From Escherichia phage T4: a DNA stretch of 64,000 bases. Below are positions 6,826 through 45,175 of this stretch, piece by piece. How positions within the stretch are numbered: position 1 is the first letter of the stretch; each line of letters starts with the position of its first letter. The translations under genes and the position numbers were made by a program. Under the pieces are notes generated by a model. The model saw only the letters and a program-made list of their open reading frames with translations. It had not been told where the DNA came from and did no database searches. The stretch is from the sequence record OL964735.1. One strand, written 5' to 3'.

Positions 6826-7041
6826 TTAAATTTCCCAATTGCCATTTTCATCAATAAATTTAATCCAGTCATTTACTGACCACTTGGTCGTATCGCCTTT
6901 TGGAGTAACATTTAAAGTGTATAGCCCTTGCTTAAAAAGCATGCGTTTGATATTCATATTTTCCTCAGCTGTAACGATAACACTCGTTTGATTTACGTTT
7001 AGCAACTCGTTGAGAAGTATTATAATCAAAATCATCATCAA
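6826..7041 (-). CDS. hypothetical small protein
   Basis: ORF track. Confidence 0.35.
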   Translation of the reverse strand: MMMILIIILLNELLNVNQTSVIVTAEENMNIKRMLFKQGLYTLNVTPKGDTTKWSVNDWIKFIDENGNWEI

Positions 7042-7255
7042 TGTAAACTGATTTTTTCAACTTTCTTACTTCACCGCGTAATTGACGATTTAACTCATCT
7101 TTAACTTCTGAATCAATACCTTTCATTCTACGCCATTTATCTGAGCGAAAAATGTTTTCAACCATATCTTTATGACTTACCCCATCAGGAGCTTTACGCT
7201 TTCCGAAATAGTCATAATCACGCACTTTTAAGTCTTTACGACGATACGTTTTACC
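6965..7255 (-). CDS. hypothetical basic protein (possible nucleic-acid binding)
   Basis: ORF track 6965..7303; internal start MGKTYRRKDLKV preferred; Lys/Arg-rich. Confidence 0.35.
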   Translation of the reverse strand, partial: GKTYRRKDLKVRDYDYFGKRKAPDGVSHKDMVENIFRSDKWRRMKGIDSEVKDELNRQLRGEVRKLKKSVYIDDDFDYNTSQRVAKRKSNECYRYS

Positions 7256-7433
7256 CATGGAGTTTAATTTCCTTAGCAACTGAACTAAATACAGCACGAT
7301 CACAAATCATACGTTTATGTAACTTGAGTATAAGATAGTAAACATCAAAACCATTTACATAAGTAACACGAACAACATTACCATTCACGAGATAATACTG
7401 TCCCTTTTTAATCTCTTTATCAACCACAACCAT
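7251..7433 (-). CDS. hypothetical small protein, first ORF behind early promoter at 7462-7493
   Basis: ORF track; promoter-like element immediately upstream. Confidence 0.35.
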   Translation of the reverse strand: MVVVDKEIKKGQYYLVNGNVVRVTYVNGFDVYYLILKLHKRMICDRAVFSSVAKEIKLHG

Positions 7434-7461
7434 ATCAATTCCTCAAAGGTAATTCATATGT

Positions 7462-7493
7462 TAATAATACCACGGTTTGAACTTGTTGTAAAC
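7462..7493 (-). promoter_or_regulatory. Early (sigma70-type) promoter, minus strand
   Basis: Minus sense TTTTTCACAAAGTT-GTTTAC-(17)-TGGTATTAT: A-rich upstream element, -35 and extended -10. Confidence 0.55.
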
Positions 7494-7570
7494 AACTTTG
7501 TGAAAAATATTTTAGGGAATGATAAGAAAGGAACGATAGCTTAGAATGGTAATATACAGAATGTGAGAAA

Positions 7571-7590
7571 GAAAGGCCCAGAGGGCCCGT
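7571..7590 (-). terminator. Intrinsic terminator after nrdH
   Basis: GGGCC-CUCU-GGGCC followed by UUUCUUUC. Confidence 0.55.
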
Positions 7591-7591
7591 C

Positions 7592-7900
7592 TTAATCTTC
7601 TATGATATCTCTATCATATCCAAGTGAAATGAGAGTTTCTTTGAAGTGTTTAATGTTCTTTTGTCTAGAATCATTAATGAAAATGACTGGATAACGAATG
7701 TTAAGAGATGTGAATCCAGCGCGTTTAGCAAGAGATACAATCAGCGGACGATCATACTCAATCTTACCATTATTTGTAAGAACTTTATAGAAAGTAAAAG
7801 GAGCATTGAGCTCCTTTAGAAGTTTTGTAACTGATTGACATCCAGGACAACGACCTACTTCATCTGGAATTCCATAGACTTCAATCTTATTTTGTTTCAC
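7592..7900 (-). CDS. nrdH: Glutaredoxin-like protein NrdH
   Basis: 102 aa; redox motif CPGC near N-terminus; position beside nrdG. Confidence 0.8.
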   Translation of the reverse strand: MKQNKIEVYGIPDEVGRCPGCQSVTKLLKELNAPFTFYKVLTNNGKIEYDRPLIVSLAKRAGFTSLNIRYPVIFINDSRQKNIKHFKETLISLGYDRDIIED

Positions 7901-7902
7901 AA

Positions 7903-8115
7903 CTATTCCTTACTAAGAGCAGCATTCAGCTTGTTAGTAATTTTATCCAGACGCTCATTGAATTCACTAGAAGATAAGCCCTTTTCTGGAGAAATCAAAC
8001 TAATCACGAAAAATATAGCAATAAAAGGAATAAGGAAAATAGCTCCAACTGCCATAAACAGAAAGAATGTTACAGTTGTAAGAAAATCAGCTAAACCTTT
8101 ACGAAATTTATACAT
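7903..8115 (-). CDS. hypothetical small membrane protein
   Basis: 70 aa with one hydrophobic helix (FLFMAVGAIFLIPFIAIFFVISLI). Confidence 0.4.
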   Translation of the reverse strand: MYKFRKGLADFLTTVTFFLFMAVGAIFLIPFIAIFFVISLISPEKGLSSSEFNERLDKITNKLNAALSKE

Positions 8116-8233
8116 TTACATTTACCTTTAATTGATTAACCAAGCATTGATAAGCACTAAACTATACTGCGAATAAAATTCTGGACCAAAATGAAAAATC
8201 ATATCATTTATAGTATCCATAATGTAATTCAAT

Positions 8234-8704
8234 TTAATCATGTTTCCACACCCCATCGGTATTTGACCAAAGTCGCTGATTATCTGATCCTCGCCACAGC
8301 TTTTTGGTCGGAAGATTTTTCTCATACTTCCCATCAATAATAACATCAACATATTTAAGCATTTCTAGTTGTTTAATATCTTCAAACTTATATCCTGTCC
8401 ACAACCAGATATCTTTCTCCGGAAATCTTGCTTTAACCCAAGAAACTAAATTTGAAATCTCTTCTCGGTTCTGTGGATAAAGTGGGTCACCGCCGGTTAA
8501 GGTAAGGCCTTGGATATACGATTTGCTTAAATGGGACGCAAGTTCTTTAACGGTATTCATAGTGAATAACTGTCCGTTACGAGCATTCCAAGTACTACGA
8601 TTATAACAACCTTCGCATTTATGCAAACATCCAGTGACGAAGAGAACGACCCTACATCCAGGGCCGTTAACGAAATCGCATGGATAAATTCTATCATAAT
8701 TCAT
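8234..8704 (-). CDS. nrdG: Anaerobic ribonucleotide reductase activating protein NrdG (radical SAM)
   Basis: 156 aa from ATG at 8704; MNYDRIYPCDFVNGPGCRVVLFVTGCLHKCEGCYN contains the radical-SAM cysteine cluster and resembles the E. coli NrdG N-terminus. Confidence 0.9.
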   Translation of the reverse strand: MNYDRIYPCDFVNGPGCRVVLFVTGCLHKCEGCYNRSTWNARNGQLFTMNTVKELASHLSKSYIQGLTLTGGDPLYPQNREEISNLVSWVKARFPEKDIWLWTGYKFEDIKQLEMLKYVDVIIDGKYEKNLPTKKLWRGSDNQRLWSNTDGVWKHD

Positions 8705-9326
8705 CTTTATATTTCCAAGTATATCCCTTATGAATAGATTGAATTCCTTTGCAACATTTATAAACAGCAGAATGAAAAAATCCTGCATTTCTTATTTCAG
8801 TTGCTCCAGTTAGTTCTATTGTATTTCCGTCTGGTGAATAGCCAATAACCGTTTTGGTGTTAAAGCGATTTCTAGAACTATTTTTGATATGCTCTTTATG
8901 ATTAGTAGACAAAGTTCTTCCTGTTAGCCCATCAGATATCCTTTTTCCAAAATCATCAGGAAGAGTTACTTTAGACCTAGCTATGCTCATTAGCTTCTTA
9001 GTTTTATCGCTTCTTTTTGCGCCACGCTGATTTTCAAATTTCTTAGCTTTTGCATACGCGTATTGTGAAGAAGTAACTTTTCTATGCTTACTATTACTCA
9101 TTATCCAATATGCATCATACATCTTTCCACCATATATTTTAGCCAATAAATGGTGAGCAGTATAGTGGGCCTTATAAGTTAAAAATACTAAGTTGTCTAA
9201 ATCATCTGAACCACCCATACTTCTTGGAATTATATGATGAAGTTCATACCCGGCTTTAGTTTGACGGGGCTTAGATGGGTGTTCAGCAGAATTAACTAGA
9301 TTTGAATAGATTCTGTCATAATTCAT
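8694..9326 (-). CDS. mobC: HNH homing endonuclease wedged between nrdD and nrdG
   Basis: 210 aa; HNH motif YELHHIIPRSMGGSDDLDNLVFLTYKAHYTAHH; start overlaps nrdD stop and stop overlaps nrdG start. Confidence 0.65.
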   Translation of the reverse strand: MNYDRIYSNLVNSAEHPSKPRQTKAGYELHHIIPRSMGGSDDLDNLVFLTYKAHYTAHHLLAKIYGGKMYDAYWIMSNSKHRKVTSSQYAYAKAKKFENQRGAKRSDKTKKLMSIARSKVTLPDDFGKRISDGLTGRTLSTNHKEHIKNSSRNRFNTKTVIGYSPDGNTIELTGATEIRNAGFFHSAVYKCCKGIQSIHKGYTWKYKDEL

Positions 9327-10597
9327 TGGTGCTTAACCCTATGCATGATTTCTTTATTTTTACCGAGATTAAATCCGCGTTCGTTCGGATTTCCCAAATA
9401 ACCACATGTTCTTCTTATGGTATTCATCTTTTTAGGATCAGTTTCTCCACAAATAGAACAAACAAATCCGTTTTCAGTAGGAGTCATTTCATGGGTACTT
9501 CCACATGTAAAACATTTATCTACTGGCATATTAACACCAAAATAATCTAAATGCTGTGCAGCATAATCCCACACGGCCTCAAGACCTTTTAAGTTATTTT
9601 TCATATCAGGAAGTTCAACATAAGAAATGTGACCACCTGTCGCAATGAAATGATATGGCGCTTCACGAGAAATCTTTTCAAACGGAGTAATATTTTCTTC
9701 TACTGAAACATGGAAACTGTTAGTGTACCAGCCTTTATCGGTAACATCTTTTACGCTTCCATATTTTTCTGTATCGAGTTTACAGAAGCGATAACACAGG
9801 TTTTCAGCAGGAGTCGAATATAAACTAAAAGCAAATCCGGTTCTTTCAGTCCACTGTTTAAGATGAGCATTCATTTTAGTTAAAATTTCTCGTCCAATAT
9901 CACGACCGACAAGAATATTCAATTCGTGAATACCAATGTATCCTAAAGACACTGAACTTCTACCGTTTTTAAATAACTCAATTATGTCGTCATCAGGTTT
10001 AAGACGAACCCCGAATGCACCTTCTTGGTAAAGAATAGGAGCAACAGTAGCTTTAACTCCTTTTAAGGAACTAATTCTACACATCAAAGCTTCAAAACAT
10101 AAATCCATTCGTTCATTAAATAGCTCAACAAATTTCTGTTCATTGAACTGTGTTCCAATATAAGAATCTAACGCGATGCGAGGAAGATTCAGTGTTACAA
10201 CACCAAGATTATTGCGTCCATCAAGAATTTCATTGCCAGTCGAATCTTTCCATACGCTCAAGAAACTACGGCAACCCATCGGAGAAACAGGAACAGATGA
10301 ACCAGTGATAGCTTTATTGTTCTTAGCTGAAATAATATCAGGATACATCCTTTTGCTTGCGCACTCTAGAGCAAGCTGTTTAATATCATAGTTCGGATCG
10401 TCTTTATAAAGATTAACACCTTCTTCAACGAACATAACAAGCTTAGGGAAAATAGGAGTTATCCCATCACGACCAAGACCTTTAATACGATTTTTCAGAA
10501 TTGCTTTCTGAATCATTCGTTCAGTCCAGTCAGTTCCCGTACCAAATGTAATTGTTACAAAAGGAGTCTGTCCGTTTGAACTGAATAACGTGTTCAC
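9323..10597 (-). CDS. nrdD: Anaerobic ribonucleotide reductase NrdD, exon 2 (exon extends a few codons upstream of 10597 to the 3' splice site)
   Basis: C-terminal glycyl-radical motif RRTCGYLG and zinc-ribbon CxxC...CxxC; track start is a GTG inside the exon; exon-1 plus exon-2 ORF pieces total 605 aa as T4 NrdD. Confidence 0.85.
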   Translation of the reverse strand: MNTLFSSNGQTPFVTITFGTGTDWTERMIQKAILKNRIKGLGRDGITPIFPKLVMFVEEGVNLYKDDPNYDIKQLALECASKRMYPDIISAKNNKAITGSSVPVSPMGCRSFLSVWKDSTGNEILDGRNNLGVVTLNLPRIALDSYIGTQFNEQKFVELFNERMDLCFEALMCRISSLKGVKATVAPILYQEGAFGVRLKPDDDIIELFKNGRSSVSLGYIGIHELNILVGRDIGREILTKMNAHLKQWTERTGFAFSLYSTPAENLCYRFCKLDTEKYGSVKDVTDKGWYTNSFHVSVEENITPFEKISREAPYHFIATGGHISYVELPDMKNNLKGLEAVWDYAAQHLDYFGVNMPVDKCFTCGSTHEMTPTENGFVCSICGETDPKKMNTIRRTCGYLGNPNERGFNLGKNKEIMHRVKHQ

Positions 10598-11640
10598 TTC
10601 ATCAATGTGTTCAGTAGAGTTCGCTACTTCTCTACCCGTTTATATGAAACAATGTAATTTGGATAATTGTCATCTAAACACAAATCTTTAATACGACTTG
10701 GGTGGAGTTTTAAATCTTTAGCAGCATCCACAAATGATTTATAGATATTGTCATTTATTTTAACATATTCTGGGACGGGATGAATTGTTATTTTTATATC
10801 TATAACATTTGGATGATTACTAACCTGTTCTTCAGAGCATTTAAGAAATTTTGCAGCTGATTTAAAACTTCTAAATTTATTTCCGGATTTTAAAGCTATA
10901 GAAACAGTCTTTTTAGCCGTTCTACTACCAATATTATTTTTAACATGAGCTTCACTTCTACTATTATTTTTATAATGCTCAATCAATTTCTCTCGTATCT
11001 TATCTTTATGTTTTAAAGATAAGATTTTACCTTTATGGGCATTACTAAGTTTTTGCTTATGTTCTTCTGAATCCGGATATTTGTTAAATTTATATCCACC
11101 TATAGATTTATTAAGAATAAATTCGTTATTAAAATATTTCCTAATAAGCATTTCTTCATGTTTAAGGGCCGATTCATAAGAATCAAAAACTTGAAGAATT
11201 ATCCACTTAGCTTTATAATCTTTAAGCTTTTCTTTAACAAGCTTAGATGACGAATTGTATTCTTTCCAATTTGTATCTTTACCATATATAGTTTTGAATT
11301 TTTTAAAACCTATATAAAAAGACTTATCAGGAAATCTTACCATATAGGTAAATGCTACAGAATTGGCAATTTTTAAGCTTTTTCTTAATTTCCATTTCAT
11401 CGTTTCACCTCGTATTCATATTTATACGAGGATAAACAGCTGCATGTCACCATGCAGTTCAGACTATATCTTCAACTCTTAGAGTTGTCTGCCGTTTCGG
11501 GTCGCTTGACCCTACTCCCTTACATTCATCAGGGATAGTCGTTGGGCATTTACAGCTACTGCTGATTTAGCAACGGATTGTCTCAGTGAGAGTTTCCCGT
11601 TTTAGGCAGATTTTACATGAGCTTGACTTACGTTAACTCA
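10598..11640 (-). mobile_element. Group I self-splicing intron in nrdD (sunY-type); ORF in 3' half, catalytic core in 5' half; boundaries approximate
   Basis: nrdD reading frame is interrupted by about 1.03 kb; an ORF-free, GC-richer structured segment at 11400-11630 lies upstream of the intron ORF; a GIY-YIG endonuclease ORF lies within. Confidence 0.8.
10624..11400 (-). CDS. I-TevII: Intron-encoded GIY-YIG homing endonuclease I-TevII
   Basis: 258 aa; GIY-YIG-type N-terminus (SFYIGFKKFKTIYG); located inside the nrdD intron. Confidence 0.85.
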   Translation of the reverse strand: MKWKLRKSLKIANSVAFTYMVRFPDKSFYIGFKKFKTIYGKDTNWKEYNSSSKLVKEKLKDYKAKWIILQVFDSYESALKHEEMLIRKYFNNEFILNKSIGGYKFNKYPDSEEHKQKLSNAHKGKILSLKHKDKIREKLIEHYKNNSRSEAHVKNNIGSRTAKKTVSIALKSGNKFRSFKSAAKFLKCSEEQVSNHPNVIDIKITIHPVPEYVKINDNIYKSFVDAAKDLKLHPSRIKDLCLDDNYPNYIVSYKRVEK

Positions 11641-12173
11641 TAAGCTTGGAATGCATCGTATACGTCTTTTTCTGTTTTAGATTGAGCATAATTCAACGCA
11701 TCAGCGATTTGCCATTTTTCTGCATCCTCAATATGTTTTGCATAGGTGCGTTTAACATAAGGAGAAAGTACTTTATCTACATTCGCAAAAGTCGTTCCGC
11801 CGTATTGGTGAGAAGCAACTTGCGCAGTAATTTGTGCCATAATTGCAGTAGCAACTCCAATTGATTTAGGAGTTTCAATCTGCGCATTACCAAGCTTAAA
11901 TCCGTTTTCAAGCATTCCTTTTAAATATACTAAACAGCAATTAGTAAATGGAAGAGCAGGGGAATAATCAATATCATGCACGTGAATAATTCCGCTTTCA
12001 TGCGCTTTCATAATAAAAGACGGGACCATATTTTTGGCAATGTGTTTAGACACAATACCAGCCATAAGGTCCCGTTGAGTTGGAAAAACACGAGAATCTT
12101 TATTAGCATTCTCGTTTAAAAGGTCTTTATTAGTTTTATGAATTAATCCTTCAATTTCTTTTTCAATTGTCAT
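11628..12173 (-). CDS. nrdD: Anaerobic ribonucleotide reductase NrdD, exon 1 (3' end lies slightly upstream of the in-frame stop at 11628)
   Basis: N-terminal 181-codon open frame MTIEKEIEGLIHKTNKDLL..., continued by the downstream exon. Confidence 0.85.
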   Translation of the reverse strand: MTIEKEIEGLIHKTNKDLLNENANKDSRVFPTQRDLMAGIVSKHIAKNMVPSFIMKAHESGIIHVHDIDYSPALPFTNCCLVYLKGMLENGFKLGNAQIETPKSIGVATAIMAQITAQVASHQYGGTTFANVDKVLSPYVKRTYAKHIEDAEKWQIADALNYAQSKTEKDVYDAFQAYELT

Positions 12174-12643
12174 TTTAAACTCTTTCTAAGCTGCTTCTTG
12201 AATGAAGCTATTAATTGTGTTTTGGTGTCAGATTCATTATATTCAAATCCTCTTTGAAGCATCTCGGCCATCATTTCCTCTTTTCCTAAACGAGAAAATT
12301 CCTTTGATTTATCTCCAACAAAGTTAGGGTGAATATTATTTTGGGTGTAATCGGATTTTAAATAAGTAAGTAAATTTTCTAACCATTCAAGATAATCAAC
12401 ACCTTGTCCCTTTAAGCCAGAACGATTAAATTTATGCTTCATTTGACCTTCTGCAGCATTGCATAGATTACAAAGCAATCCACGCACCTTTCCTGCTTTT
12501 GGTCCATTTAATTCATGGTCATGGTCGAGGTGATTAGCTTGAACATCAGGATTTAGTTCTCGTTGGCAAATTAAGCATTTACCGTTTTGTGCATCATAAA
12601 ATTTCTGTTTTTCTTCTTTGTATAATTTGCCAGTCAATAACAT
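12170..12643 (-). CDS. 49: Endonuclease VII (Holliday junction resolvase / packaging debranching enzyme)
   Basis: 157 aa; zinc-binding CLICQ...HLDHDHELNG...CNLCN pattern typical of T4 endo VII. Confidence 0.9.
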   Translation of the reverse strand: MLLTGKLYKEEKQKFYDAQNGKCLICQRELNPDVQANHLDHDHELNGPKAGKVRGLLCNLCNAAEGQMKHKFNRSGLKGQGVDYLEWLENLLTYLKSDYTQNNIHPNFVGDKSKEFSRLGKEEMMAEMLQRGFEYNESDTKTQLIASFKKQLRKSLK

Positions 12644-12684
12644 AATAAACCCTTACCTTAAATAGATAAGGGTATTTATTATTT

Positions 12685-13170
12685 TCAAGTATTGTAAAAC
12701 ATTTGATGCAATCGCTTATATTGCTGAATCATTCGGTCAGAAAAAGAAATTTGAGTTTCAAGCCATTCAATGTACTCTGCGGCAGCTTGCATTAAATTTC
12801 CTTCATAGCCATCGTTATTTTCTTGTGCAGCTAATTTAGCTAATGCGTATGAAATACGTTCACCTTGAAAATCGGCTTTAGGCTTCTGAACAACTTGATT
12901 AGTTCGCTCTACAACTTCTTCAATTTCGCCATTTTCTACTGATTCAGTATTCCACAAACACCAATACGTAATTGGCTTATCGTAGATGTTAATAATCTTT
13001 CCATCAGAAAGTTCAATTTCAATAATTCCAGTGTCAGGCTCTATATCATCTTCACATTCTTTTACAAGTTCACGAACTTTAAAGACAGTACCTGCACTAA
13101 GTTCCGGCCAGTAATTACACAGCCCTGTATCAGCACGATTAATTCTAAACCATTTATCTACTGTAATCAT
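12685..13170 (-). CDS. pin: Pin (inhibitor of host Lon protease)
   Basis: 161 aa from ATG at 13170 (track start 13188 is TTG); position between 49 and nrdC. Confidence 0.6.
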   Translation of the reverse strand: MITVDKWFRINRADTGLCNYWPELSAGTVFKVRELVKECEDDIEPDTGIIEIELSDGKIINIYDKPITYWCLWNTESVENGEIEEVVERTNQVVQKPKADFQGERISYALAKLAAQENNDGYEGNLMQAAAEYIEWLETQISFSDRMIQQYKRLHQMFYNT

Positions 13171-13328
13171 GTCCCATCTCCATATCAATTAAGTCATTTA
13201 TCGTTGGTTCATTATACACCGTTTCTTCATCAGTGTAAACCGGTTCTTCCGGCTCTGGCTCTACAGTTTCCCATCTAGCCGCCCACCAAGGTTTTATAGC
13301 GTAATCCATTCTCGTACTGTCTGAGTTA

Positions 13329-13514
13329 CTACACGTTCTCGAAGCTCAACCAGTTCAACCGATATTGGCATTTACCATCTTGCACCCAGTCTTCTATTTC
13401 GATAGGTTTAAGATAGTCGGAAAAATCGAAATCATAGTTTTCCGAAAATGCATCATGGTCTTCAATGATTTCGCTCAGAACTGCATCAACATCTAATTTA
13501 TTTTCAATATTCAT
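13329..13514 (-). CDS. hypothetical small acidic protein
   Basis: ORF track. Confidence 0.35.
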   Translation of the reverse strand: MNIENKLDVDAVLSEIIEDHDAFSENYDFDFSDYLKPIEIEDWVQDGKCQYRLNWLSFENV

Positions 13515-13717
13515 TTTTCACACCACCAACTGCTTACTTCAAAATCGGGTTCGCCATGTTCCCAGAACCAGGGGCCGATAGGAATCCACTTACCTTCATC
13601 GGTGACGTCATATTCTTCGGATTTAGCTAACCAAATCATGTATTCATAGAGTTTATATTCCAGGTCGCCTTCTGTTCCATCGCCTAGAAAAATAATTTGT
13701 TCATTTAATTCTATCAT
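13511..13717 (-). CDS. hypothetical small acidic protein
   Basis: ORF track; overlapping stop/start with neighbours. Confidence 0.4.
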   Translation of the reverse strand: MIELNEQIIFLGDGTEGDLEYKLYEYMIWLAKSEEYDVTDEGKWIPIGPWFWEHGEPDFEVSSWWCEK

Positions 13718-13977
13718 TTAAAGTATTCCCGCAATTGGTCAAATCCACCAATATGACTTCCATCAGGAGCAAATACCTGAGGCATTGTTAAGCCGATTTG
13801 AGTATCACGACCTAGTTTAGTCAGAAGCTCAGCAATTTTCTCATCATCAAAAACACCTTTTTCCGGCATAATGTTGATAAATTCAAACGGCTGTTTCTTC
13901 ACAGTCAAAAGACGTTTTGCATTATCGCAATACACACATTTATGAATGTTGCTATCATAACCATATACTTTAAACAT
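13714..13977 (-). CDS. nrdC: Thioredoxin/glutaredoxin NrdC
   Basis: 87 aa; active-site CVYC near N-terminus. Confidence 0.85.
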   Translation of the reverse strand: MFKVYGYDSNIHKCVYCDNAKRLLTVKKQPFEFINIMPEKGVFDDEKIAELLTKLGRDTQIGLTMPQVFAPDGSHIGGFDQLREYFK

Positions 13978-13978
13978 A

Positions 13979-14221
13979 TTATTCCTTAATTCCTAGTACT
14001 TGTTTAAAAGTCTCGTCGTAATCAAGACTTTGGCCCGTTTGTTCTTTATGCTTGTATATAATATCACTTACTTCTGATAGCATATTTTTATATGAACGAG
14101 TTAAAGCAGATTTAAGCACGCTGTATCTATCAGGAAATTTACCGTGTTCATTATAATAAGCTATTGCTAATTCACGGACTGCCTTTTCAGCAGTCTCCAT
14201 ATATTCTTTACGCTTTGTCAT
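13979..14221 (-). CDS. hypothetical protein (nrdC.1 position)
   Basis: ORF track 13979..14362; internal start [13 protein letters not shown] preferred to avoid the 155-nt overlap. Confidence 0.35.
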
Positions 14222-14522
14222 TTTCTTCTCGGTCAAATCGGTGTTTACAATGGCGACATTTATAACGAAGATTATTAGTCTGCCAATGGACCAATTGCAC
14301 CTGTTCAGTTCCACATTCAGGGCAATTAGGAACGTTTTTAGAAGCCCTTTCGCGACGTTCAACCATGACCATTACAGAATCCCAATTAACAGGAGGGCTA
14401 TAATCATCACAACCATAAATCTTTCCACGCATTTCCAGATCGTCTTCTTCACCAGCCATAATAATTTTAATTAGACTAGAATTACTTGAAGCTGCAATGT
14501 CTTCTAATAGACGCTTTTTCAT
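14208..14522 (-). CDS. hypothetical protein with C-terminal zinc ribbon
   Basis: 104 aa; CPECG...CRHCKH. Confidence 0.45.
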
Positions 14523-15445
14523 TTCAATACCTCAATAGCATTACGTAAACCATTTGCTTTGGCGGTTAAATCCTTAAGAACTTTAGTATGCTCTTCAATC
14601 TGTTTTTCAACTTCAATCAAACGGGTACTGAGATATTCGCGTTCTTCTTTCATAGTATCATTCCCATGATTGGGCTTTGGCGTAGGTTTAAATTTATTAG
14701 GGTCCTTTAACTTAATAACAACTTTAGTTTCAAACAGTGAAAGACCATAATTCGTATTATCATCAAAGGATTCAACTACGTCCATTTTAGACAATAACGT
14801 ACGAAGATTATAAGTCAAAGAACGAATCGTTTTATTATGTTTATTAGCTTCACATGGTTTCATATATGGAAGATTTTTATATATTTCATGCGGAGCACAA
14901 ACAATAATTAACAATTCAAATGGTCCATTCTGTGATGATGGAATGAATTTAGCCGTAACCCAATCTTTTACATTTACATTAATAGTACGATCATCGCCAT
15001 GACAAAACAGTCTACGAGAATGCTTAAAAAGCATATTCACATTATTATTAAATTCGTGTGAAAACTCACTGGCAAATTTTTCTTTACTATCTTTAGAAAA
15101 CCATTCTTCTAAATAAGTTCTTTTCACGTCGTTAATAATATTAAATGTAACAACATTATCATTTGATACATTAGTCTCAATGTAGCTTGGATACATAAAT
15201 TTTTTAACATTATTAACAGCTATCACAGAAGATAGTAATCGGGAACGTTTGAACCACTCGAGCAAAGAACCAAGAGAATGTGAATACGCATTTTGTGTAT
15301 CTTTACAAATATGGTTTTCCCATCCAATATAGTCTAAAAAATCACGAAGAATATTATTGATTACTTCTCTATGTCCTTTCTGATAATCACGATGTTTAGT
15401 AATAAGACTGTCAAAATAATCAATATAATGTTTACGAGTTTTCAT
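14519..15445 (-). CDS. hypothetical protein, member 1 of a 4-gene tandem paralog array with C-terminal coiled coil
   Basis: 308 aa; N-terminus MKTRKHYIDYF; heptad-like C-terminus [31 protein letters not shown]. Confidence 0.5.
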   Translation of the reverse strand: MKTRKHYIDYFDSLITKHRDYQKGHREVINNILRDFLDYIGWENHICKDTQNAYSHSLGSLLEWFKRSRLLSSVIAVNNVKKFMYPSYIETNVSNDNVVTFNIINDVKRTYLEEWFSKDSKEKFASEFSHEFNNNVNMLFKHSRRLFCHGDDRTINVNVKDWVTAKFIPSSQNGPFELLIIVCAPHEIYKNLPYMKPCEANKHNKTIRSLTYNLRTLLSKMDVVESFDDNTNYGLSLFETKVVIKLKDPNKFKPTPKPNHGNDTMKEEREYLSTRLIEVEKQIEEHTKVLKDLTAKANGLRNAIEVLK

Positions 15446-15499
15446 GTTCTTCTCACTTGGTTAATGATTTATACTCCGAGCCATCCTTGGCTTTAAATT

Positions 15500-16501
15500 T
15501 TACTTAATTAACTGCAAAGCTTGTTCTAGACGATCAAGACGATTAACGGATTCTTCCCAAATCTTTTTAGCCTGCTCATATTCTTTCTGCGCTTTATTAG
15601 AAATTTCTAGAACTTCTTTATAAGCTTTTTCTAGTGCAATAACTTCTGGACGAATTTCTATCGGTTCAGGTGAATCATCAAGACATTCCATTAGTTCCTC
15701 AAGGGTAGTTTCTTCTTTAGGAGTATTCACAATTTCATCACATTTTTGTTGGTAAATTTCTTTACTAGTAGGTGAATAAGCACATTTCACTTCACGAAGG
15801 CTAATTACGAGTTTATATCCTTCCCAACCGCATATATTCTTAAAAGGATATGTATGAATATTTTCTACTGTTTCCATACAAAGTAATGCGGTCTCTAATT
15901 GACGAGTTATAGTGCTAGCAATTGAGAAAAATTTATTAATATTCTTTTGGTTAGTTTCTGGTGTAAAAAATCCATAATTCACAAAAATAGATACTTTATT
16001 TTTATCAAGTTCATATTCTTTTATGATAATCATATCAGAAGCCAAAGGATGAATTTGACGATAATCGCCATAACATAATTTAGAAGCTGATTTTAGAATT
16101 TGCTTCTTGAAAAGTCTGAAATTACTAATCCAACGACGAGTAAAAATATTCTCAGGGTCTTCTTTATTATTGAGATGATAAGAATTAACATCACCGAACC
16201 AATTATATCCTACTACATCTTTAGTTCGTTTAATTTCTTTCCCAAAATTACCAAGAATATCCCGATTAACCAAATATGAAAGAAGACGAGACTCTTTAAA
16301 GGTTTTCTTGATAACATCTTTATCTACACGGCTAGAAATTTTACGAATTTCATGAATAAATTTAGTAGAAGAAACAATACTTGCATCAACACTATTGAGC
16401 CACTGATTGATAATAGAAAGAACGCTATTTTGGCCAAACATCGGTATAGCTTTATCATCAATAACGCTATTGAATGATTTGATATATTCGTTACGAGTCA
16501 T
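15500..16501 (-). CDS. hypothetical protein, paralog 2 of coiled-coil array
   Basis: Start moved to ATG at 16501 (MTRNEYIKSF) behind GAGGAG and promoter-like element; internal block RRWISNFRLFKKQILKSASKL resembles paralog 3. Confidence 0.5.
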   Translation of the reverse strand: MTRNEYIKSFNSVIDDKAIPMFGQNSVLSIINQWLNSVDASIVSSTKFIHEIRKISSRVDKDVIKKTFKESRLLSYLVNRDILGNFGKEIKRTKDVVGYNWFGDVNSYHLNNKEDPENIFTRRWISNFRLFKKQILKSASKLCYGDYRQIHPLASDMIIIKEYELDKNKVSIFVNYGFFTPETNQKNINKFFSIASTITRQLETALLCMETVENIHTYPFKNICGWEGYKLVISLREVKCAYSPTSKEIYQQKCDEIVNTPKEETTLEELMECLDDSPEPIEIRPEVIALEKAYKEVLEISNKAQKEYEQAKKIWEESVNRLDRLEQALQLIK

Positions 16502-16529
16502 ATTAATCTCCTCAGTAGAAAGTAAGAAC

Positions 16530-16559
16530 ATTATACCACATCCTTGTGGCAAAGTAAAC
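16530..16559 (-). promoter_or_regulatory. Early promoter, minus strand, driving coiled-coil paralog 2
   Basis: GTTTAC -35, 18-bp spacer, TGTGGTATAAT -10, then GAGGAG and ATG. Confidence 0.55.
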
Positions 16560-17581
16560 TAGTTCAGTGCATTTAGTGCATTGTTCAGTTTAGAACGTTG
16601 CTTTGTCAGATTTTGAACCCTTGACTGAGCTTGTTCTAACGCCTTTTCAGCTTCTAGCACTTCATTGGTCGCTTTAACTAATTCAGCATCTACTGCCTTA
16701 AGAGACTTCTCAATCGCATCCGCGTGCCATTTTTCAACAGGTTTAAGACTTGGATTTTCAACAGGAAGAAAATTCACTTTATTGAATTTCCATGCATCTT
16801 TATTACCTGAGCTATACATCCAAAATTTAGGATCGTTTGATAAGTAATTAGATAAATTTAAGTTATCTTGCACTTCTTGCTTTTTCTCTTGTGTGACTTC
16901 GTCCTTTCTCAAAAATTCATATTTAAATGAAACGATCATATCAAGTTCATATGATGTTGTATCTAACTTAAATCGTTCAAAACGAGGTAAAATCTTAGAT
17001 TGAACAGCAGCAACAACATCCATATACTTAAATGCTTCTGTCAACTGCGATTTAAGGCATTCGCAAATTGAAAGAGAATTTTTTGTATTAGGTTTAAAGC
17101 TAATTCGTGCAGTTCTATTATTTTCTTTTAACGGTCTTACTTCCATCTGAAGAGTATAACCATCAAATTTCAGATTCTTTAAGTTAATGTCAGAGCCTTT
17201 TAATCGACTAGCAGTAGACAAAATTTGCTTTAATTGTCTACGGAACAGAGCAATAAATCTCCATTCAATACGATAATGATTTGGATTGAAAAATCCAGAT
17301 GATAAATCGACCTTACTTTGACCAACGCCTTGAACAAATAGAGGATTTTTATAATCAATAGTTTTACAGAAATCGGTGAGCTGTTCACGAGCAGTCATTT
17401 GAGTAATATACCCTGCTTTACTAAAATTACGCACCCATTCACTGCTATTCGTATACTTAAAGTGATGAATAACACGATTAACTTTATCAGGGTCTAAATT
17501 ATTTTCACACAAAAATGTCATAACATCACGAGTATAGCTGGCATTACGAACCATATCTTCAATTTGAGAACGAGTTTTCAT
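16559..17581 (-). CDS. hypothetical protein, paralog 3 of coiled-coil array
   Basis: 340 aa; MKTRSQIEDM N-terminus; block YRIEWRFIALFRRQLKQILSTASRLKG; C-terminal coiled coil. Confidence 0.5.
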   Translation of the reverse strand: MKTRSQIEDMVRNASYTRDVMTFLCENNLDPDKVNRVIHHFKYTNSSEWVRNFSKAGYITQMTAREQLTDFCKTIDYKNPLFVQGVGQSKVDLSSGFFNPNHYRIEWRFIALFRRQLKQILSTASRLKGSDINLKNLKFDGYTLQMEVRPLKENNRTARISFKPNTKNSLSICECLKSQLTEAFKYMDVVAAVQSKILPRFERFKLDTTSYELDMIVSFKYEFLRKDEVTQEKKQEVQDNLNLSNYLSNDPKFWMYSSGNKDAWKFNKVNFLPVENPSLKPVEKWHADAIEKSLKAVDAELVKATNEVLEAEKALEQAQSRVQNLTKQRSKLNNALNALN

Positions 17582-17589
17582 GGTGTTCC

Positions 17590-18504
17590 TTAAGATTTAA
17601 GTAAATCAACAATTTTAATTAACTTTTCACGCTCAGATTTAGCTTTACTACTCAATCCAGATAGTCTGAAAATTTCATCATCATATTGTTGAATAGAAAT
17701 ATTCAGCTCTTCAATTTGCTTATTAAAATAATCAATTTGTTCAGAATGTTTTTCGTTACTACGAACTGGTACAGGTTTTGTAGGCAATTTAGTTGAACTG
17801 GATTCATTCGGGCGATAAATTAAAATGCAATTTGAACCAATCGGGCATTTAGCACCAGATGAATATTCTAACGTTCCAGCTTCTTTTAAAACTTCAAAAG
17901 CTAAACAGAGATGATGCCCCATATTAACATAATCAGTAGAGCGAGCTCTGATGTAATAATCATCTCCACGAGTGCTAAATTTAAAGCATTTAAGGTCTTC
18001 TGTATTATTAGTTTTAAAAATCATTTGTTTATCTAGACCTTTAGCCAATCGAGCACCTAATGCTAATAATCGTCGTTGATTTTCCCACAAATCTGCGATC
18101 ATTTGGTCAAATGATAATTTCGGCATTAGCCGACCATAAAGGTCATATCCTTTATTATAATTGCGAAGGATTTCACTCGCATTAATACGAGACAACGCTC
18201 CAATTTTATTAAGGGCTTTCATAATACGATTAGATAAACTCATTCCAGACCCGTTTGTTCGCTGTAAATGTTTTTCTAATCCAAATCCAATATCAACTTT
18301 AAATTTATCTAAAATTTCAGCATGAACATCTCTGTCAATAACATTCAAATCCAAAGTTGGGTTAAATCTATGAAAAAATTTATCTGGCTCTCCACGACGT
18401 AAAACAGTCCATTCATTCATCATTTTTTTATTAACTAAAGATTTAATTACTGCGTTGACATTATTAATTACTACTGACATATTTTCCTCACTCAATTTTA
18501 CCAA
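17590..18504 (-). CDS. hypothetical protein, paralog 4 of coiled-coil array
   Basis: 304 aa; C-terminal coiled coil EQIDYFNKQIEELNISIQQYDDEIFRL. Confidence 0.45.
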   Translation of the reverse strand: MVKLSEENMSVVINNVNAVIKSLVNKKMMNEWTVLRRGEPDKFFHRFNPTLDLNVIDRDVHAEILDKFKVDIGFGLEKHLQRTNGSGMSLSNRIMKALNKIGALSRINASEILRNYNKGYDLYGRLMPKLSFDQMIADLWENQRRLLALGARLAKGLDKQMIFKTNNTEDLKCFKFSTRGDDYYIRARSTDYVNMGHHLCLAFEVLKEAGTLEYSSGAKCPIGSNCILIYRPNESSSTKLPTKPVPVRSNEKHSEQIDYFNKQIEELNISIQQYDDEIFRLSGLSSKAKSEREKLIKIVDLLKS

Positions 18505-18889
18505 TTACGCGGAATAAGATTGAACAGACTATATAAGTACCACATATAGATTGAACTAATGCCATTCCAAAGAACCAAACAATATTATCAAACCATGTCT
18601 GTTTTACGTCGAAAGGACGTAAACTTACAGTAATATTATCACCTTTTTCTATTGAAGAATACATCTCTGGGGAAATATATTCACTAAATCTATAACCGTC
18701 TTTGAGTTCATATACAGCAATAAACGATAAACTAGACCCCTTTCCTTGAGTTCCTGTAAGGGTATTAACTACAGTAACATCATAATCTTTATAATGCATA
18801 TAATCATTAATTGCGTAATAACCATATGCAATTACTATACATAAACAACATATCAATAAATTCAATCTTTTAATTATCAACTGTTTCAT
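18488..18889 (-). CDS. hypothetical membrane protein
   Basis: 133 aa; N-terminal TM helix (LLICCLCIVIAYGYYAI) and C-terminal hydrophobic segment. Confidence 0.45.
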   Translation of the reverse strand: MKQLIIKRLNLLICCLCIVIAYGYYAINDYMHYKDYDVTVVNTLTGTQGKGSSLSFIAVYELKDGYRFSEYISPEMYSSIEKGDNITVSLRPFDVKQTWFDNIVWFFGMALVQSICGTYIVCSILFRVIGKIE

Positions 18890-18944
18890 AATAATCTCAA
18901 TTAAAAGGGCTTAGAACCATTATACCATCCTTGGTATAAAGCGG

Positions 18945-19472
18945 TTATGCGAGTACCGTATTTAACCGTTCTTCAAACTTCCGAAGAGTGTTCTGGCGTT
19001 CAGCTCTTTGCTTTTTGTAAGTTTCAATACGCTCTGAAATGAGAGTGTATCGTTCATTTACTGATTCTTTCATAAAATCAGGAATTTCACGAGAAGCTTT
19101 AATCTCGTCAAATTTATCAATAACAGCTTGCTCTTCAGCAATTAAGTTATCATACATCAAAATATCTTTCTTGATGAACTCAATATCTTCTTGAGTTACA
19201 CGAGATAATTTAGATGCTTTATCCTTTTTGTACTGTTCGTTAGTATCACGAGACCAGTGTAATGTACGATTTTTATTCGTATTCTTGTAAATTTCTACAA
19301 TACCAATCTCATCGATAATAACGATCCAATTCCAACGGGATTTGTAAATTTGTCCTCCATTAACAGTGATTTCACCTCCGATTGAGATGTCATTAAAGAA
19401 CTTGCTTTGTGCTTCTGATTTAAATTTACCATCGTTGTAATTTACCAGGTTGAAAATATCTTTAGCGTTCAT
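18945..19472 (-). CDS. hypothetical coiled-coil protein
   Basis: Start moved to ATG at 19472 (MNAKDIFN) behind GGAGGAA; the track start lies inside the promoter-like element. Confidence 0.45.
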   Translation of the reverse strand: MNAKDIFNLVNYNDGKFKSEAQSKFFNDISIGGEITVNGGQIYKSRWNWIVIIDEIGIVEIYKNTNKNRTLHWSRDTNEQYKKDKASKLSRVTQEDIEFIKKDILMYDNLIAEEQAVIDKFDEIKASREIPDFMKESVNERYTLISERIETYKKQRAERQNTLRKFEERLNTVLA

Positions 19473-19498
19473 TTTGTGTTCCTCCGTAGTTGATAGTT

Positions 19499-19530
19499 GT
19501 ATAGTACCACAGAGGAACGGTCTTGTAAAC
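19499..19530 (-). promoter_or_regulatory. Early promoter, minus strand
   Basis: GTTTACA...TGTGGTACTATACAACTATCAAC conserved block. Confidence 0.5.
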
Positions 19531-19532
19531 AA

Positions 19533-19847
19533 CTAAAAGAAACTTCTTTCACAATTTTTTCCACTGAACCAAGCGCTCACTGCTTTCTTAGTTTCAGGAG
19601 CAGTGTTATCCATAAACCATTCAAAGGCAGCCTTTTTATGATTCTGGAGGGCTTCTCGGGCTTTAATCTGCTCACGGTCTATTAACACTAACATATGAGC
19701 CTTTCTTGTCACCAGGGGCTTCTTATGATTTTTTGAATACTCCCAATCATTTGTCCATCGCATCGTTGTTGCGAATTGAAATACAGCTTCTTTAATCTTA
19801 GTTTCGTAAATTTCACGAGCCTTTGAGTATAACATCATTACCTCCAT
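19533..19847 (-). CDS. hypothetical protein
   Basis: ORF track; 104 aa. Confidence 0.4.
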   Translation of the reverse strand: MEVMMLYSKAREIYETKIKEAVFQFATTMRWTNDWEYSKNHKKPLVTRKAHMLVLIDREQIKAREALQNHKKAAFEWFMDNTAPETKKAVSAWFSGKNCERSFF

Positions 19848-19937
19848 TTACCAGTTTAATTCTAGTCATCTTTTTGATGGCAGTCCATATAATCTATTTC
19901 TGAACTGCCTTTTTGTCTTAGAAGGCCTCTTATGAAT

Positions 19938-20918
19938 TTATTTCAGAAGAGTAACCGTAGCGATTTCTTCCCAACCGTTTTTGTCGGTCATAATAAAGTC
20001 AGCAAGATAAAGTGCAGTACGCAGTGAAACATTACGTAAACGGTTAACATTGACTTTCATCCATGATAATGCTTTATAAGTTTCTTCATCAGAAAGACCA
20101 CGCTTTTGCATCATGTCGGTTGAAAGAATAACATCTTCAACCCTGACCATAATTTCTTCATTAGTGTGAACACCCAAATCCAAATAAACTGAGCGGGACA
20201 CTAATGCTTGTAAATGTGGAGCAAGTTTAGTACCACGGTCTAATTCGCGGTCAATGTCAACGTTTGTGATAAAAACAATTGTTCCTTTAAATTCAAACTC
20301 ACGCTCAATGCCTTTTTCTTCTAAGTAAGAAGATGCAGTGCTCCAGCAGACTTTACGGGTCTCTCCAGTGTCCAGAGCAGCTTTCAGAAGATTAAGAATG
20401 TCCATATCAGAGAAAACATCCACATCATCAATCAAAAGGACAGAATTCTCTTCACGATTATTCCAAAGCTGTTCATAAAGACCGATACCAGAGATTTTAC
20501 CGTTAATGCTTTTATACTCAATGTATCCAATATCATTTGCTTTATTCAAAGCTTTATCTAAAGAATATGTTTTACCAATACCCGCCGCACCAGAGATAAT
20601 TAATGAACGAATATTTCCGTTAATAATACCATTCGTCATCATTCCCATAACATTAAATCTTTTATTAATGCGGGTTTTCATATCTTCATATGATTCTTTA
20701 ACTTCTTCAACTTTTACACCATCATATGAAATGTCTGATTTGTAAACCCAAACACCGCGACGTTTACCGTCAATTTCAACAAAAACTTTACCATCTCCTT
20801 GTGCATCTACCGGAGCATTATCAGGGAACCATTCACCTAAGAGCTCAAAAGTTCCAGAGATTTCTTTACCGAAGTAGATACCCTTATTGATAGTTACAGT
20901 TTTCATTTTATTCTCCAA
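19938..20918 (-). CDS. P-loop NTPase (AAA-like ATPase)
   Basis: 326 aa; Walker A GAAGIGKT and Walker B-like LLIDDVD; preceded by promoter-like element at 20939-20970. Confidence 0.55.
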   Translation of the reverse strand: MENKMKTVTINKGIYFGKEISGTFELLGEWFPDNAPVDAQGDGKVFVEIDGKRRGVWVYKSDISYDGVKVEEVKESYEDMKTRINKRFNVMGMMTNGIINGNIRSLIISGAAGIGKTYSLDKALNKANDIGYIEYKSINGKISGIGLYEQLWNNREENSVLLIDDVDVFSDMDILNLLKAALDTGETRKVCWSTASSYLEEKGIEREFEFKGTIVFITNVDIDRELDRGTKLAPHLQALVSRSVYLDLGVHTNEEIMVRVEDVILSTDMMQKRGLSDEETYKALSWMKVNVNRLRNVSLRTALYLADFIMTDKNGWEEIATVTLLK

Positions 20919-36651: not shown

Positions 36652-36726
36652 TGGTATCCCGCCCTGGGATCGAACCAGGACCGCAAACTTAGAAGGATCG
36701 TATGCTATCCATTACACCAGCGGGAC
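36652..36726 (-). tRNA. tRNA-Arg (anticodon UCU), CCA encoded
   Basis: Minus-strand GTCCCGCTGGTGTAATGGATAGCATACGATCCTTCTAAGTTTGCGGTCCTGGTTCGATCCCAGGGCGGGATACCA; cloverleaf with T-arm CCTGG-TTCGATC-CCAGG. Confidence 0.8.
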
Positions 36727-36731
36727 GTAAT

Positions 36732-37397
36732 TTAAAATTTCATTTTTCGACCTTTAAACCATCCTTCTGGAATTGGGTCAGTTTTCTTAATACGTTTAGA
36801 AACTTTTTCATCTAATGAATGAATCCACATCATACCGAATTGGGAATTCTTTTCACCTTTCTGGTGATTATTTTTGGCGTGAGATTCTTTCATTTTATTA
36901 ATAGTTTCAGGAGTATGATGCTTATTTAGAAATCTGCTATTATTTAAAAATTTTTCCCTGTATTCAGGAGTTGACCACAAACGTTTAAATACATTTGAAC
37001 CAATTTTACGATATTTTTCTTGAAGTAAAATATCATTTTCAAAACGTGACTTAAACGATTTAGCTCCTTTTAAGCTAGCATCTTTCTTCTGGTTTAGCAT
37101 TCCAGGAATATTTACATGATCCCATCCACCTTCACCGCCAAGTTTTAAATTATACACATCTGGTCTATTTAAAAACTCTTCTGTGACAATATTTTTCTCG
37201 GCTTCAAGCATAGATTCTTTATCGTCAAAATACTCTAATATTTCTTTAGAAAAATTTTCTATACCATATTTATCTTGGGCTCTTTTTAATAATTTACCAG
37301 AACCCATATATCCATCATCTAAATTTTCGGTAGAATGCACACCAATATAAATTTTATTATTAATTTTATTTGTTATTTTATAAGTGTAATAGAACAT
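36732..37397 (-). CDS. segB: GIY-YIG homing endonuclease SegB, inside the tRNA cluster
   Basis: 221 aa; [34 protein letters not shown]...NLKLGGEGG. Confidence 0.8.
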   Translation of the reverse strand: MFYYTYKITNKINNKIYIGVHSTENLDDGYMGSGKLLKRAQDKYGIENFSKEILEYFDDKESMLEAEKNIVTEEFLNRPDVYNLKLGGEGGWDHVNIPGMLNQKKDASLKGAKSFKSRFENDILLQEKYRKIGSNVFKRLWSTPEYREKFLNNSRFLNKHHTPETINKMKESHAKNNHQKGEKNSQFGMMWIHSLDEKVSKRIKKTDPIPEGWFKGRKMKF

Positions 37398-37438
37398 AAA
37401 TATCTCCTATTTCTAAGAGTATTTATGTTCTCAAAATA

Positions 37439-37512
37439 TGACCCAGACCAGATTTGAACTGGTAACCTTTCCCTTATGAGGGGACTGCTGCTAACCATTG
37501 AGCTACAGGGCC
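37439..37512 (-). tRNA. tRNA-Ile (anticodon CAU, presumably lysidine-modified), CCA not encoded
   Basis: Minus-strand GGCCCTGTAGCTCAATGG...CTCATAA anticodon loop...ACCAGTTCAAATCTGGT; 1 nt from tRNA-Thr. Confidence 0.7.
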
Positions 37513-37513
37513 T

Positions 37514-37589
37514 TGGTGCTGATTGACGGAATCGAACCGCCGACATCCTCATTACAAGTGAGGTGCTCTACCTACTGAGCTAAATCAGC
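37514..37589 (-). tRNA. tRNA-Thr (anticodon UGU), CCA encoded
   Basis: Minus-strand GCTGATTTAGCTCAGTAGGTAGAGCACCTCACTTGTAATGAGGATGTCGGCGGTTCGATTCCGTCAATCAGCACCA. Confidence 0.85.
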
Positions 37590-37596
37590 AAAATTA

Positions 37597-37683
37597 CGGA
37601 GGCGATAGGATTTGAACCTATGAGTCGCCGGAGCGACTGCCGGTTTTCAAGACCGGTGCATTAAACCACTCTGCCACGCCTCC
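37597..37683 (-). tRNA. tRNA-Ser (anticodon UGA), long variable arm, CCA not encoded
   Basis: Minus-strand GGAGGCGTGGCAGAGTGG...CCGGT-CTTGAAA-ACCGG...GGTTCAAATCC...CGCCTCCG. Confidence 0.85.
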
Positions 37684-37685
37684 AG

Positions 37686-37759
37686 TCTCCATACAAGGAT
37701 TTGAACCTTGGACCTCCTGATCCCAAATCAGGCGCTCTACCAAACTGAGCTACACGGAG
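37686..37759 (-). tRNA. tRNA-Pro (anticodon UGG), CCA not encoded
   Basis: Minus-strand CTCCGTGTAGCTCAGTTTGGTAGAGCGCCTGATTTGGGATCAGGAGGTCCAAGGTTCAAATCCTTGTATGGAGA; 2 nt from tRNA-Ser. Confidence 0.8.
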
Positions 37760-37769
37760 TAAATTAAAT

Positions 37770-37843
<74 letters not shown>

Positions 37844-37848
37844 AAATT

Positions 37849-37935: not shown

Positions 37936-37936
37936 G

Positions 37937-45165: not shown

Positions 45166-45175
45166 TATACTTCCA

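Follow-up and report, generated by a model that had tools for sequence, protein, structure and literature searches.

The nrdD gene of bacteriophage T4, formerly called sunY, is interrupted by a textbook self-splicing intron that has been known, together with its homing endonuclease I-TevII, since the 1980s and is among the best studied; the original GTP-labelling work on it is reportedly that of Gott, Shub and Belfort in 1986. The td intron, with I-TevI, and the nrdB intron, with I-TevIII, are likewise T4 group I introns in genes of nucleotide metabolism. The open reading frames (ORFs) of td and nrdB are said to be looped out of helix P6a, an observation attributed to Shub et al. in 1988. The nrdD intron is unlike both: its ORF follows the complete core, in the interval from P9.1 to P9.2, and its 3' splice site is remote. 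The td core shows about 81% identity to the nrdD core over P7-P9 (query positions 99-214). The endonuclease ORFs of td, nrdB and nrdD are alike in having a late or middle promoter and a hairpin that sequesters the ribosome-binding site (RBS), and I-TevIII is an HNH enzyme (PMC2988022), unlike I-TevII, which is assigned to the GIY-YIG family.

Group I introns with cores related to that of T4 are also found in the nrdD genes of Vibrio phage F88 and Escherichia phage nieznany. Their insertion sites differ from that of T4, as exon 1 comprises 389 amino acids in F88 and 294 in nieznany, compared with 179 codons in T4. In both phages the ORF lies between two matched halves of the core, unlike in T4 nrdD; it is annotated as an HNH endonuclease in F88 and as a hypothetical protein in nieznany.

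The DNA analyzed here is a window of 64,000 nucleotides from Escherichia phage T4 (record OL964735.1), and all features described below lie on its minus strand. All 1501 bases of positions 10400-11900 are shared, with 100.0% identity, by a dozen records of bacteriophage T4 and T4-type phages, including AF158101.6, NC_000866.4, T4T, RB55 and RB59. The gene order in the T4 records is 49 (endonuclease VII), nrdD exon 1, the intron with I-TevII, nrdD exon 2, mobC and nrdG. In these records nrdD is annotated as a joined two-piece coding sequence with I-TevII between the pieces, and the I-TevII entry reads 'DNA endonuclease encoded by group 1A intron in nrdD; GIY-YIG family'. Near nrdD, T4 reference coordinates are obtained by adding 34212 to the window coordinate, with orientation unchanged, which places the intron at positions 44815-45847 of AF158101.6 and NC_000866.4; the element of those records is the same as the one described here in sequence, length (1033 nt) and gene order. 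We are therefore practically certain that the element is the T4 nrdD group I intron of subgroup IA, encoding the homing endonuclease I-TevII, and no evidence contradicting this identification was found. Elsewhere in the source sequence, away from the intron, a comparison with every T4 record revealed three unexplained gaps of about 100 nt each.

The limits of the intron were established by comparison with relatives that lack it. In most of the 695 phage records matching the flanks, the match is limited to two pieces that add up to 468 of the 1501 query bases, and the insertion must therefore be 1033 nt long. A three-way MAFFT alignment smeared the intronless sequence over the start of the intron, and the junction was thus taken directly from the sequences and confirmed by in-silico splicing. 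In the intronless phage teqhad the junction reads …GCTTATGAAT/ATGAAGTAAAT… (the slash marks the insertion site), while the window has …GCTTATGAGT on the side of exon 1 and ATGAAGTGAAC… on that of exon 2. Differences in the bases next to the junctions leave no room for sliding either boundary, and the intron therefore occupies positions 11635-10603, its first nucleotide being U11635 and its last G10603. Exon 1 (12173-11636, 538 nt), whose end was set by the alignment to teqhad and by the in-silico splice, holds codons 1-179 and the first base of codon 180. Exon 2 (10602-9323, 1280 nt including the stop codon) starts with A10602. The ligated RNA is expected to read …UAUGAGU/AUGAAGUG… across the junction.

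When 12173-11636 is joined in silico to 10602-9323, a sequence of 1818 nt is obtained with 605 codons plus a stop and no internal stop codon; precise excision of the intron thus restores the nrdD reading frame. The protein reads …QAYE/YEVNTLF… across the junction, and it aligns over residues 1-605 with the crystallized anaerobic ribonucleotide reductase of T4 (PDB 1H78 and related entries), with identity across the junction. Two differences from the PDB chain were detected. Residue 83, outside the intron, is Tyr here and Asp in both PDB 1H78 and AF158101.6, and residue 580 is Gly here and Ala in the PDB chain. We take the latter to be the engineered glycyl-radical-site mutant (G580A) made for crystallization.

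These results bear on several points raised by the earlier note, which had read the region by eye and had proposed that a group I intron splits nrdD. That the split gene is nrdD is borne out by the two-piece annotation of the T4 records and by the 605-aa product of splicing. The limits proposed for the intron, 10598-11640, do contain it, but they exceed it by 5 nt on either side. The note had left the exact splice junctions open, and they did need fixing; the alignment to an intronless nrdD that it had suggested, together with the in-silico splice, settled them and yielded the 1033-nt insertion. The stop of the NrdD frame at 11628 was found as described: the exon-1 ORF (12173-11628, 181 aa) consists of the NrdD N-terminus and two intron-encoded codons, and is closed by a TAA at 11630-11628, 6 nt inside the intron. 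On the other side, the downstream nrdD frame is open from the TAA at 10642-10640, and an in-frame GTG at 10597 begins a 424-aa ORF with the remaining part of NrdD; the true start of exon 2, at 10602, lies upstream of this GTG. The remark that the stretch near 10597-10620 contains a GTG but no ATG holds for in-frame codons, but an out-of-frame ATG is present at 10602-10600.

A scan of the whole window with Rfam at the gathering threshold produced a single Intron_gpI (RF00028) match, at 11671-11440 on the minus strand. This match scores 105.3 bits (gathering score 50) with an E-value of 2.8e-26, covers the full model (positions 1-253) and is far beyond chance. The covariance search on the minus strand that had been suggested earlier was thus positive, and the intron claim is further sustained by the U·G pair at the 5' splice site, by the terminal G and by the absence of the element from about 625 of the 695 related records. 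The ORF-free segment upstream of the endonuclease gene (11401-11635) has 43% G+C, compared with 27% in the I-TevII ORF and 35% in the window; it is the ribozyme core, as its richer G+C content had led the earlier note to suspect.

The model alignment and a helix map place the core at 11610-11440, and all helices from P3 to P9 were located, including P7, the guanosine-binding helix. Upstream of the core, P1 (11642-11616) is formed by the exon sequence UAUGAGU (11642-11636) and the internal guide GCUCAUG (11622-11616). Its 7 base pairs include the U11636·G11622 wobble at the 5' splice site, and exon 1 ends in U11636. The two strands of the core helices are 11610-11605 and 11493-11488 for P3, 11601-11596 and 11577-11572 for P4, 11591-11588 and 11584-11581 for P5, 11571-11570 and 11547-11546 for P6, and 11564-11561 and 11556-11553 for P6a. 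P7 pairs GACUA with UAGUC (11540-11536 and 11466-11462), P8 lies at 11487-11482 and 11478-11473, and P9, with a GUGA loop, at 11457-11451 and 11446-11440. Two additional hairpins, P7.1 (11535-11531 and 11520-11516) and P7.2 (11512-11508 and 11503-11499), are placed between P7 and the 3' strand of P3. Such a pair of hairpins is said to define subgroup IA, a criterion attributed to Michel and Westhof in 1990, and the intron belongs to this subgroup.

After P9 come, in this order, the P9.1 hairpin, the ORF, the P9.2 hairpin and a 3' terminal tail. With the ORF placed after the complete core, between P9.1 and P9.2, about 800 nt separate the 3' splice site from the catalytic centre. P9.2 (10636-10613), which pairs GGUAGAG with CUCUACU and has a predicted folding energy of -7.1 kcal/mol (RNAfold), holds the stop codon of I-TevII. 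The tail (10612-10603) is GAACACAUUG, and its last base, G10603, is the terminal nucleotide of the intron (omega-G). Two base pairs between U10605 and U10604 of the tail and A11458 and A11459, the last two bases of J7/9, make up P9.0, an interaction that was first defined on the T4 nrdD (sunY) intron (Michel et al. 1990). P10 is weak, with at most 3 bp detected by eye.

About 46 records of other phages have a diverged allele of the intron at this insertion site, a figure obtained by subtracting the 24 T4-type records from the 70 that contain at least 80% of the core; examples are those of Salmonella phage pSe_SNUABM_01 and Shigella phage SHSML-52-1. The 695 related records are accordingly distributed into 24 with the T4 type, about 46 with the variant type and about 625 without intron. 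Such a patchy distribution, in which about 70 of 695 records have an intron at the site, fits a mobile element. The diverged allele has the same architecture as that of T4, with a core, a hairpin containing TATAAATA and GAGG, an ORF for a homologous endonuclease, P9.2 and a tail. It differs in having a longer P7.2 region, a shorter P8, an endonuclease of 256 aa and many compensatory changes.

The core of the diverged allele is about 73% identical to the T4 core, and the comparison is informative about the fold. All 7 pairs of P1 are identical in both alleles, and P7 is also invariant between them. Relative to pSe_SNUABM_01, 14 double compensatory changes were found in P3, P4, P6a, P7.1, P7.2 and P8, of which P7.1 and P7.2 have 2-3 each; 6 further pairs are altered on one side. 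Nine pairs that appeared 'broken' fall at indels misplaced by MAFFT in P8, P9.1 and P9.2. Direct inspection of the variant revealed that P8 (CAUC/GAUG) and P9.2 are intact and that the hairpin sequestering the RBS is re-formed. The variant P9.2 is GGCAUGA/UCAUGCU, with 4 of its 7 pairs altered on both sides with respect to T4. P9.0 shows compensation as well, as J7/9 changes from AA to AU and the tail from UU to AU. Altogether, the compensatory changes support the group I fold, in a comparison that involves two allele types only.

One observation could have suggested that the ribozyme had been lost in the diverged allele: a multi-locus Rfam scan yielded no match for it, whether the gathering threshold or a cut-off of E 0.01 was applied. 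This possibility was rejected, as the misses in the multi-locus scan are an artefact of the speed filter, and a search of the diverged allele alone (locus positions 480-900) gave an RF00028 match of 70.6 bits.

Other explanations for the interruption of nrdD were considered. In Aeromonas phage Aeh1 the nrdA gene is split by mobE, and one could imagine, in parallel, that nrdD was divided by a free-standing homing-endonuclease gene, leaving two genes that are translated separately and whose products assemble later, without RNA splicing. Many relatives in GenBank are indeed annotated with two nrdD coding sequences (nrdD-A and nrdD-B, or 'NrdD-like … large subunit' twice), and the stop of the exon-1 frame 6 nt beyond the junction and the in-frame GTG at 10597 could be read in the same way. 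However, the GTG is not preceded by a Shine-Dalgarno sequence, a full-length group I core (105.3 bits) abuts the break, the insertion is bounded exactly by the U·G pair and the terminal G, and crystallized T4 NrdD is one chain of 605 aa, continuous over the junction. Moreover, the nrdD intron has been reported to be self-splicing and mobile (PMC2988022; PMC1865063). We thus regard a split gene as very improbable, and the two separate nrdD genes of many GenBank phage records as an annotation error.

Still less credible is that the break is an artefact of sequencing or assembly, or foreign DNA in a dead nrdD pseudogene. The three gaps of about 100 nt found elsewhere in the window might raise such a suspicion, but a dozen independently deposited T4-type records agree with the window at 100% of the 1501 bases around the intron, about 46 records of other phages have a diverged element with compensatory changes in this position, and excision restores a perfect ORF. 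The interruption might also be handled after transcription by other means, either by ribosomes that bypass it or as an intein removed from the protein. T4 offers a precedent for bypassing, since a 50-nt gap is skipped during translation of gene 60. The gap in nrdD is, however, of 1033 nt, with numerous stop codons and a separately framed ORF of 258 aa; the frame of exon 1 continues for two codons before it reaches a stop, and therefore no in-frame fusion of the intein kind is possible; and the match of the segment to a ribozyme model has an E-value of 2.8e-26. Of all the alternatives this one strikes us as the most far-fetched. In sum, split gene, artefact, bypassing and intein are all excluded: by the ribozyme match, by boundaries set exactly at the U·G pair and the terminal G, by the covarying allele and by a crystal structure with a single chain. 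The group I intron is the explanation adopted below.

The I-TevII gene (11400-10624) encodes 258 aa plus a stop and spans nt 236-1012 of the intron. An I-TevII-like ORF of 258 aa with its own GAGG site had been anticipated by the earlier note, and both were found; its location 'in the 3' half' is right as to the 3' position but too narrow, as the ORF spans the 3' three quarters. The product is I-TevII by identity to T4 records, and it matches PHROG 314, 'homing endonuclease', with an E-value of 7.9e-29. All its Pfam matches fall just under the curated cut-offs: SegE_GIY-YIG (PF19835) scores 21.6 against 25 bits, NUMOD1 22.5 against 22.8 and NUMOD3 18.8 against 20.4. PF01541 did not match I-TevII in the Pfam search, no PDB chain was matched by its sequence even at E 10, and phmmer detected no similarity between I-TevI and I-TevII. 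Homologues of I-TevII are scarce, with only 3 clusters among 5.8 billion proteins. One of these clusters is the endonuclease of the variant allele (P0002), which is 56% identical to I-TevII and has PF19835 and PF07453 in precomputed annotation; its target specificity may have shifted.

Residues 17-31 of I-TevII read F-T-Y-M-V-R-F-P-D-K-S-F-Y-I-G, so that the first triplet of the motif is TYM, not GIY. In an alignment of four sequences, Y19, Y29-I30-G31, E82 and N97 are invariant, and E82 and N97 stand at the positions expected for the catalytic Glu and Asn (the corresponding set in I-TevI is R27, E75 and N90). After YIG the same alignment contains no invariant Arg; Lys33 and Lys34 are found there. 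The structure model, built from the four-sequence alignment, has a moderate pLDDT of 65.5. The predicted catalytic domain (pLDDT 70-85) would consist of strands at 16-22, 28-34 and 65-72 and helices at 53-59 and 75-88. The best structural match of the I-TevII model is the catalytic domain of I-TevI; Foldseek E-values for the model are about 0.6. The moderate scores of the model are due to the shallow alignment. Fold, motif and literature together support the view that I-TevII is probably a GIY-YIG enzyme, with a GIY-YIG-like fold. I-TevII is listed as active on nrdD, and its intron as mobile, in Table 1 of PMC2988022 and in PMC1865063.

The signals for I-TevII expression are located immediately upstream of its ORF. 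The GAGG ribosome-binding site (11411-11408) is separated by a 7-nt spacer from the ATG at 11400, and it is carried by the 3' arm of the P9.1 hairpin (11431-11408; arms 11431-11424 and 11415-11408). The 5' arm and the loop of the same hairpin contain TATAAATA (11426-11419), the T4 late-promoter motif. The segment 11445-11390 has a predicted folding energy of -15.8 kcal/mol, with GAGG paired (z -4.4; none of 200 shuffles folds as well), and in the variant allele both TATAAATA and a hairpin that sequesters the RBS are kept, the latter with -19.1 kcal/mol. The late-promoter motif is not enriched in the window, where 12 copies were found versus 11.7 expected. At such chance frequency, assignment of a late-promoter function rests on published primer-extension data, by which middle and late promoters of all three T4 intron endonucleases have been mapped (PMC2988022). 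A regulatory scheme in which a hairpin sequesters the RBS and transcripts from a late promoter free it was worked out for I-TevI, and a similar one is described for I-TevII (PMC2988022; PMC1865063).

A further element shares bases with both the I-TevII RBS and the late promoter, at the 3' end of the latter. This sequence, TATGAATACGAGGTGAA (11420-11404), agrees with the exon junction (TATGAGT/ATGAAGTGAA) in 14 of its 17 nucleotides and may thus mimic the homing site. When the flanks of the ORF were fused and aligned locally with the homing site, a score of 12 was obtained, compared with 7.3 ± 1.5 for shuffled sequences, and 18 of 1000 shuffles reached 12. According to PMC3984707, which summarizes Loizos et al., intron sequences flanking the ORF resemble the I-TevII target and are cut likewise. 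An autoregulatory operator has been shown for I-TevI and only proposed for I-TevII in a 2010 review (PMC2988022). A tentative interpretation is that the mimic is a putative operator through which I-TevII might repress its own synthesis; we would put the chances of a working operator at somewhat less than even.

The mechanism that we propose is built upon the T4 identity of the element, its group I core and exact junctions, the restored NrdD, the hairpins with their covariation, and the GIY-YIG-like fold predicted for the endonuclease, all of which come from this analysis. Codon 180 of the nrdD precursor transcript is interrupted by 1033 nt, of which the first 200 or so form the P3-P9 catalytic core with the IA-specific hairpins P7.1 and P7.2. 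In P1 the last bases of exon 1 pair with the internal guide, so that the U·G wobble marks the 5' splice site. An external guanosine would attack after U11636. P9.2 and the two base pairs of P9.0, between the tail and J7/9, would then bring the remote 3' splice site back onto the core, permitting that exon 1 attacks after the terminal G10603 and that the exons are ligated, in a transesterification of two steps. The joined message would be translated into the 605-aa anaerobic ribonucleotide reductase. Looping-out of the I-TevII ORF between P9.1 and P9.2 would leave the core undisturbed. Self-splicing enters this scheme from the literature, the T4 nrdD intron having been described as self-splicing (PMC2988022).

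Late-promoter use, endonuclease activity and homing are likewise drawn from the literature or inferred. In early transcripts, the RBS of I-TevII would be locked in the P9.1 hairpin. The late promoter lies inside P9.1 and would give rise to transcripts that lack the 5' arm, and I-TevII would therefore be made late in infection. Upon mixed infection, I-TevII would cut intronless nrdD alleles near the insertion site, and double-strand-break repair would then copy the intron into the cut allele.

The nrdD intron and I-TevII are long established, and finding them has no value as a discovery. They serve instead as a positive control, in which the reading by eye was right and computation recovered junctions, fold and product. 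For three decades, this intron and its endonuclease have been models for group I catalysis, 3' splice-site selection and intron homing.

When the window was compared with the T4 reference, AF158101.6, the nrdD gene was found to carry Tyr (TAT) at residue 83 (position 11927), where both the reference and the crystallised T4 NrdD (PDB 1H78) have Asp (GAT). Around this codon, the window is 100.0% identical to resequenced T4 records (T4T, MT984581 and others). The Asp83 of the old reference is probably an error or a clone variant. At 8194, in the interval from nrdG to 55.8, the window has one T more than AF158101.6, and some 50 other positions scattered over 1-48979 differ from the reference by single-base substitutions or 1-nt indels. 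Newer T4 records, compared over 7000-20000, are 100.0% identical to the window except at the gaps of about 100 nt described below; because of this identity, the differences from AF158101.6 within that interval look like known reference errors.

Sequence comparison also revealed that three blocks of the T4 reference, each of about 100 nt, are absent from the window. One is a block of 102 nt within gene 49.3 (about T4 47938-48039; window junction 13625/13626), and another comprises 100 nt within gene 49.2 (T4 47572-47671; junction 13359/13360). The remaining block, also of 100 nt, includes the 5' end of denV and the 3' end of ipII (T4 65319-65418; junction 30897/30898). The blocks in genes 49.3 and 49.2 are present in all the T4-type records listed. 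Because their sizes are near-round, the three absences look like an artefact of editing, masking or assembly rather than natural deletions.

Genes for homing endonucleases other than the intron-encoded I-TevII were also detected. A free-standing HNH endonuclease gene, mobC (8694-9326, minus strand; PHROG 655, E 4e-43; MobC in the T4 annotation), sits between nrdD and nrdG and overlaps each of them. A 2010 review (PMC2988022) enters 'ND' for the activity of MobC and calls its target 'unknown'. The T4 tRNA gene cluster (36655-38009, minus strand), in which eight tRNAs were detected with Rfam, harbors the GIY-YIG homing endonuclease gene segB between tRNA-Arg and tRNA-Ile, matching the T4 annotation.

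A diverged allele of the nrdD intron was found in about 46 phage records, belonging to Mosigvirus and to some Tequatrovirus. In two phage loci with this allele, L003 and L006, it lies at 530-765 and 1301-1562, respectively. Its core is 73% identical to that of T4, and its endonuclease 56% identical. The diverged allele gave no Rfam match when scanned together with several loci; searched alone against the Rfam group I model (RF00028), it scored 70.6 bits. In many phage records, the nrdD locus is annotated as two nrdD genes.

Related group I cores were detected in three other phages. That of Campylobacter phage A145 (positions 1444-1718 of its locus; 70.6 bits) is compact, and its record carries no annotation. 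The cores of Vibrio phage F88 (1494-2246 of its locus) and Escherichia phage nieznany (1499-2236 of its locus) scored 38.6 and 39.7 bits with Rfam, under the gathering threshold of 50 bits. In both, an ORF is placed between the two matched core halves, annotated as an HNH endonuclease in F88 and as a hypothetical protein in nieznany. Like the T4 intron, the F88 and nieznany cores split nrdD, but they do so elsewhere in the gene.
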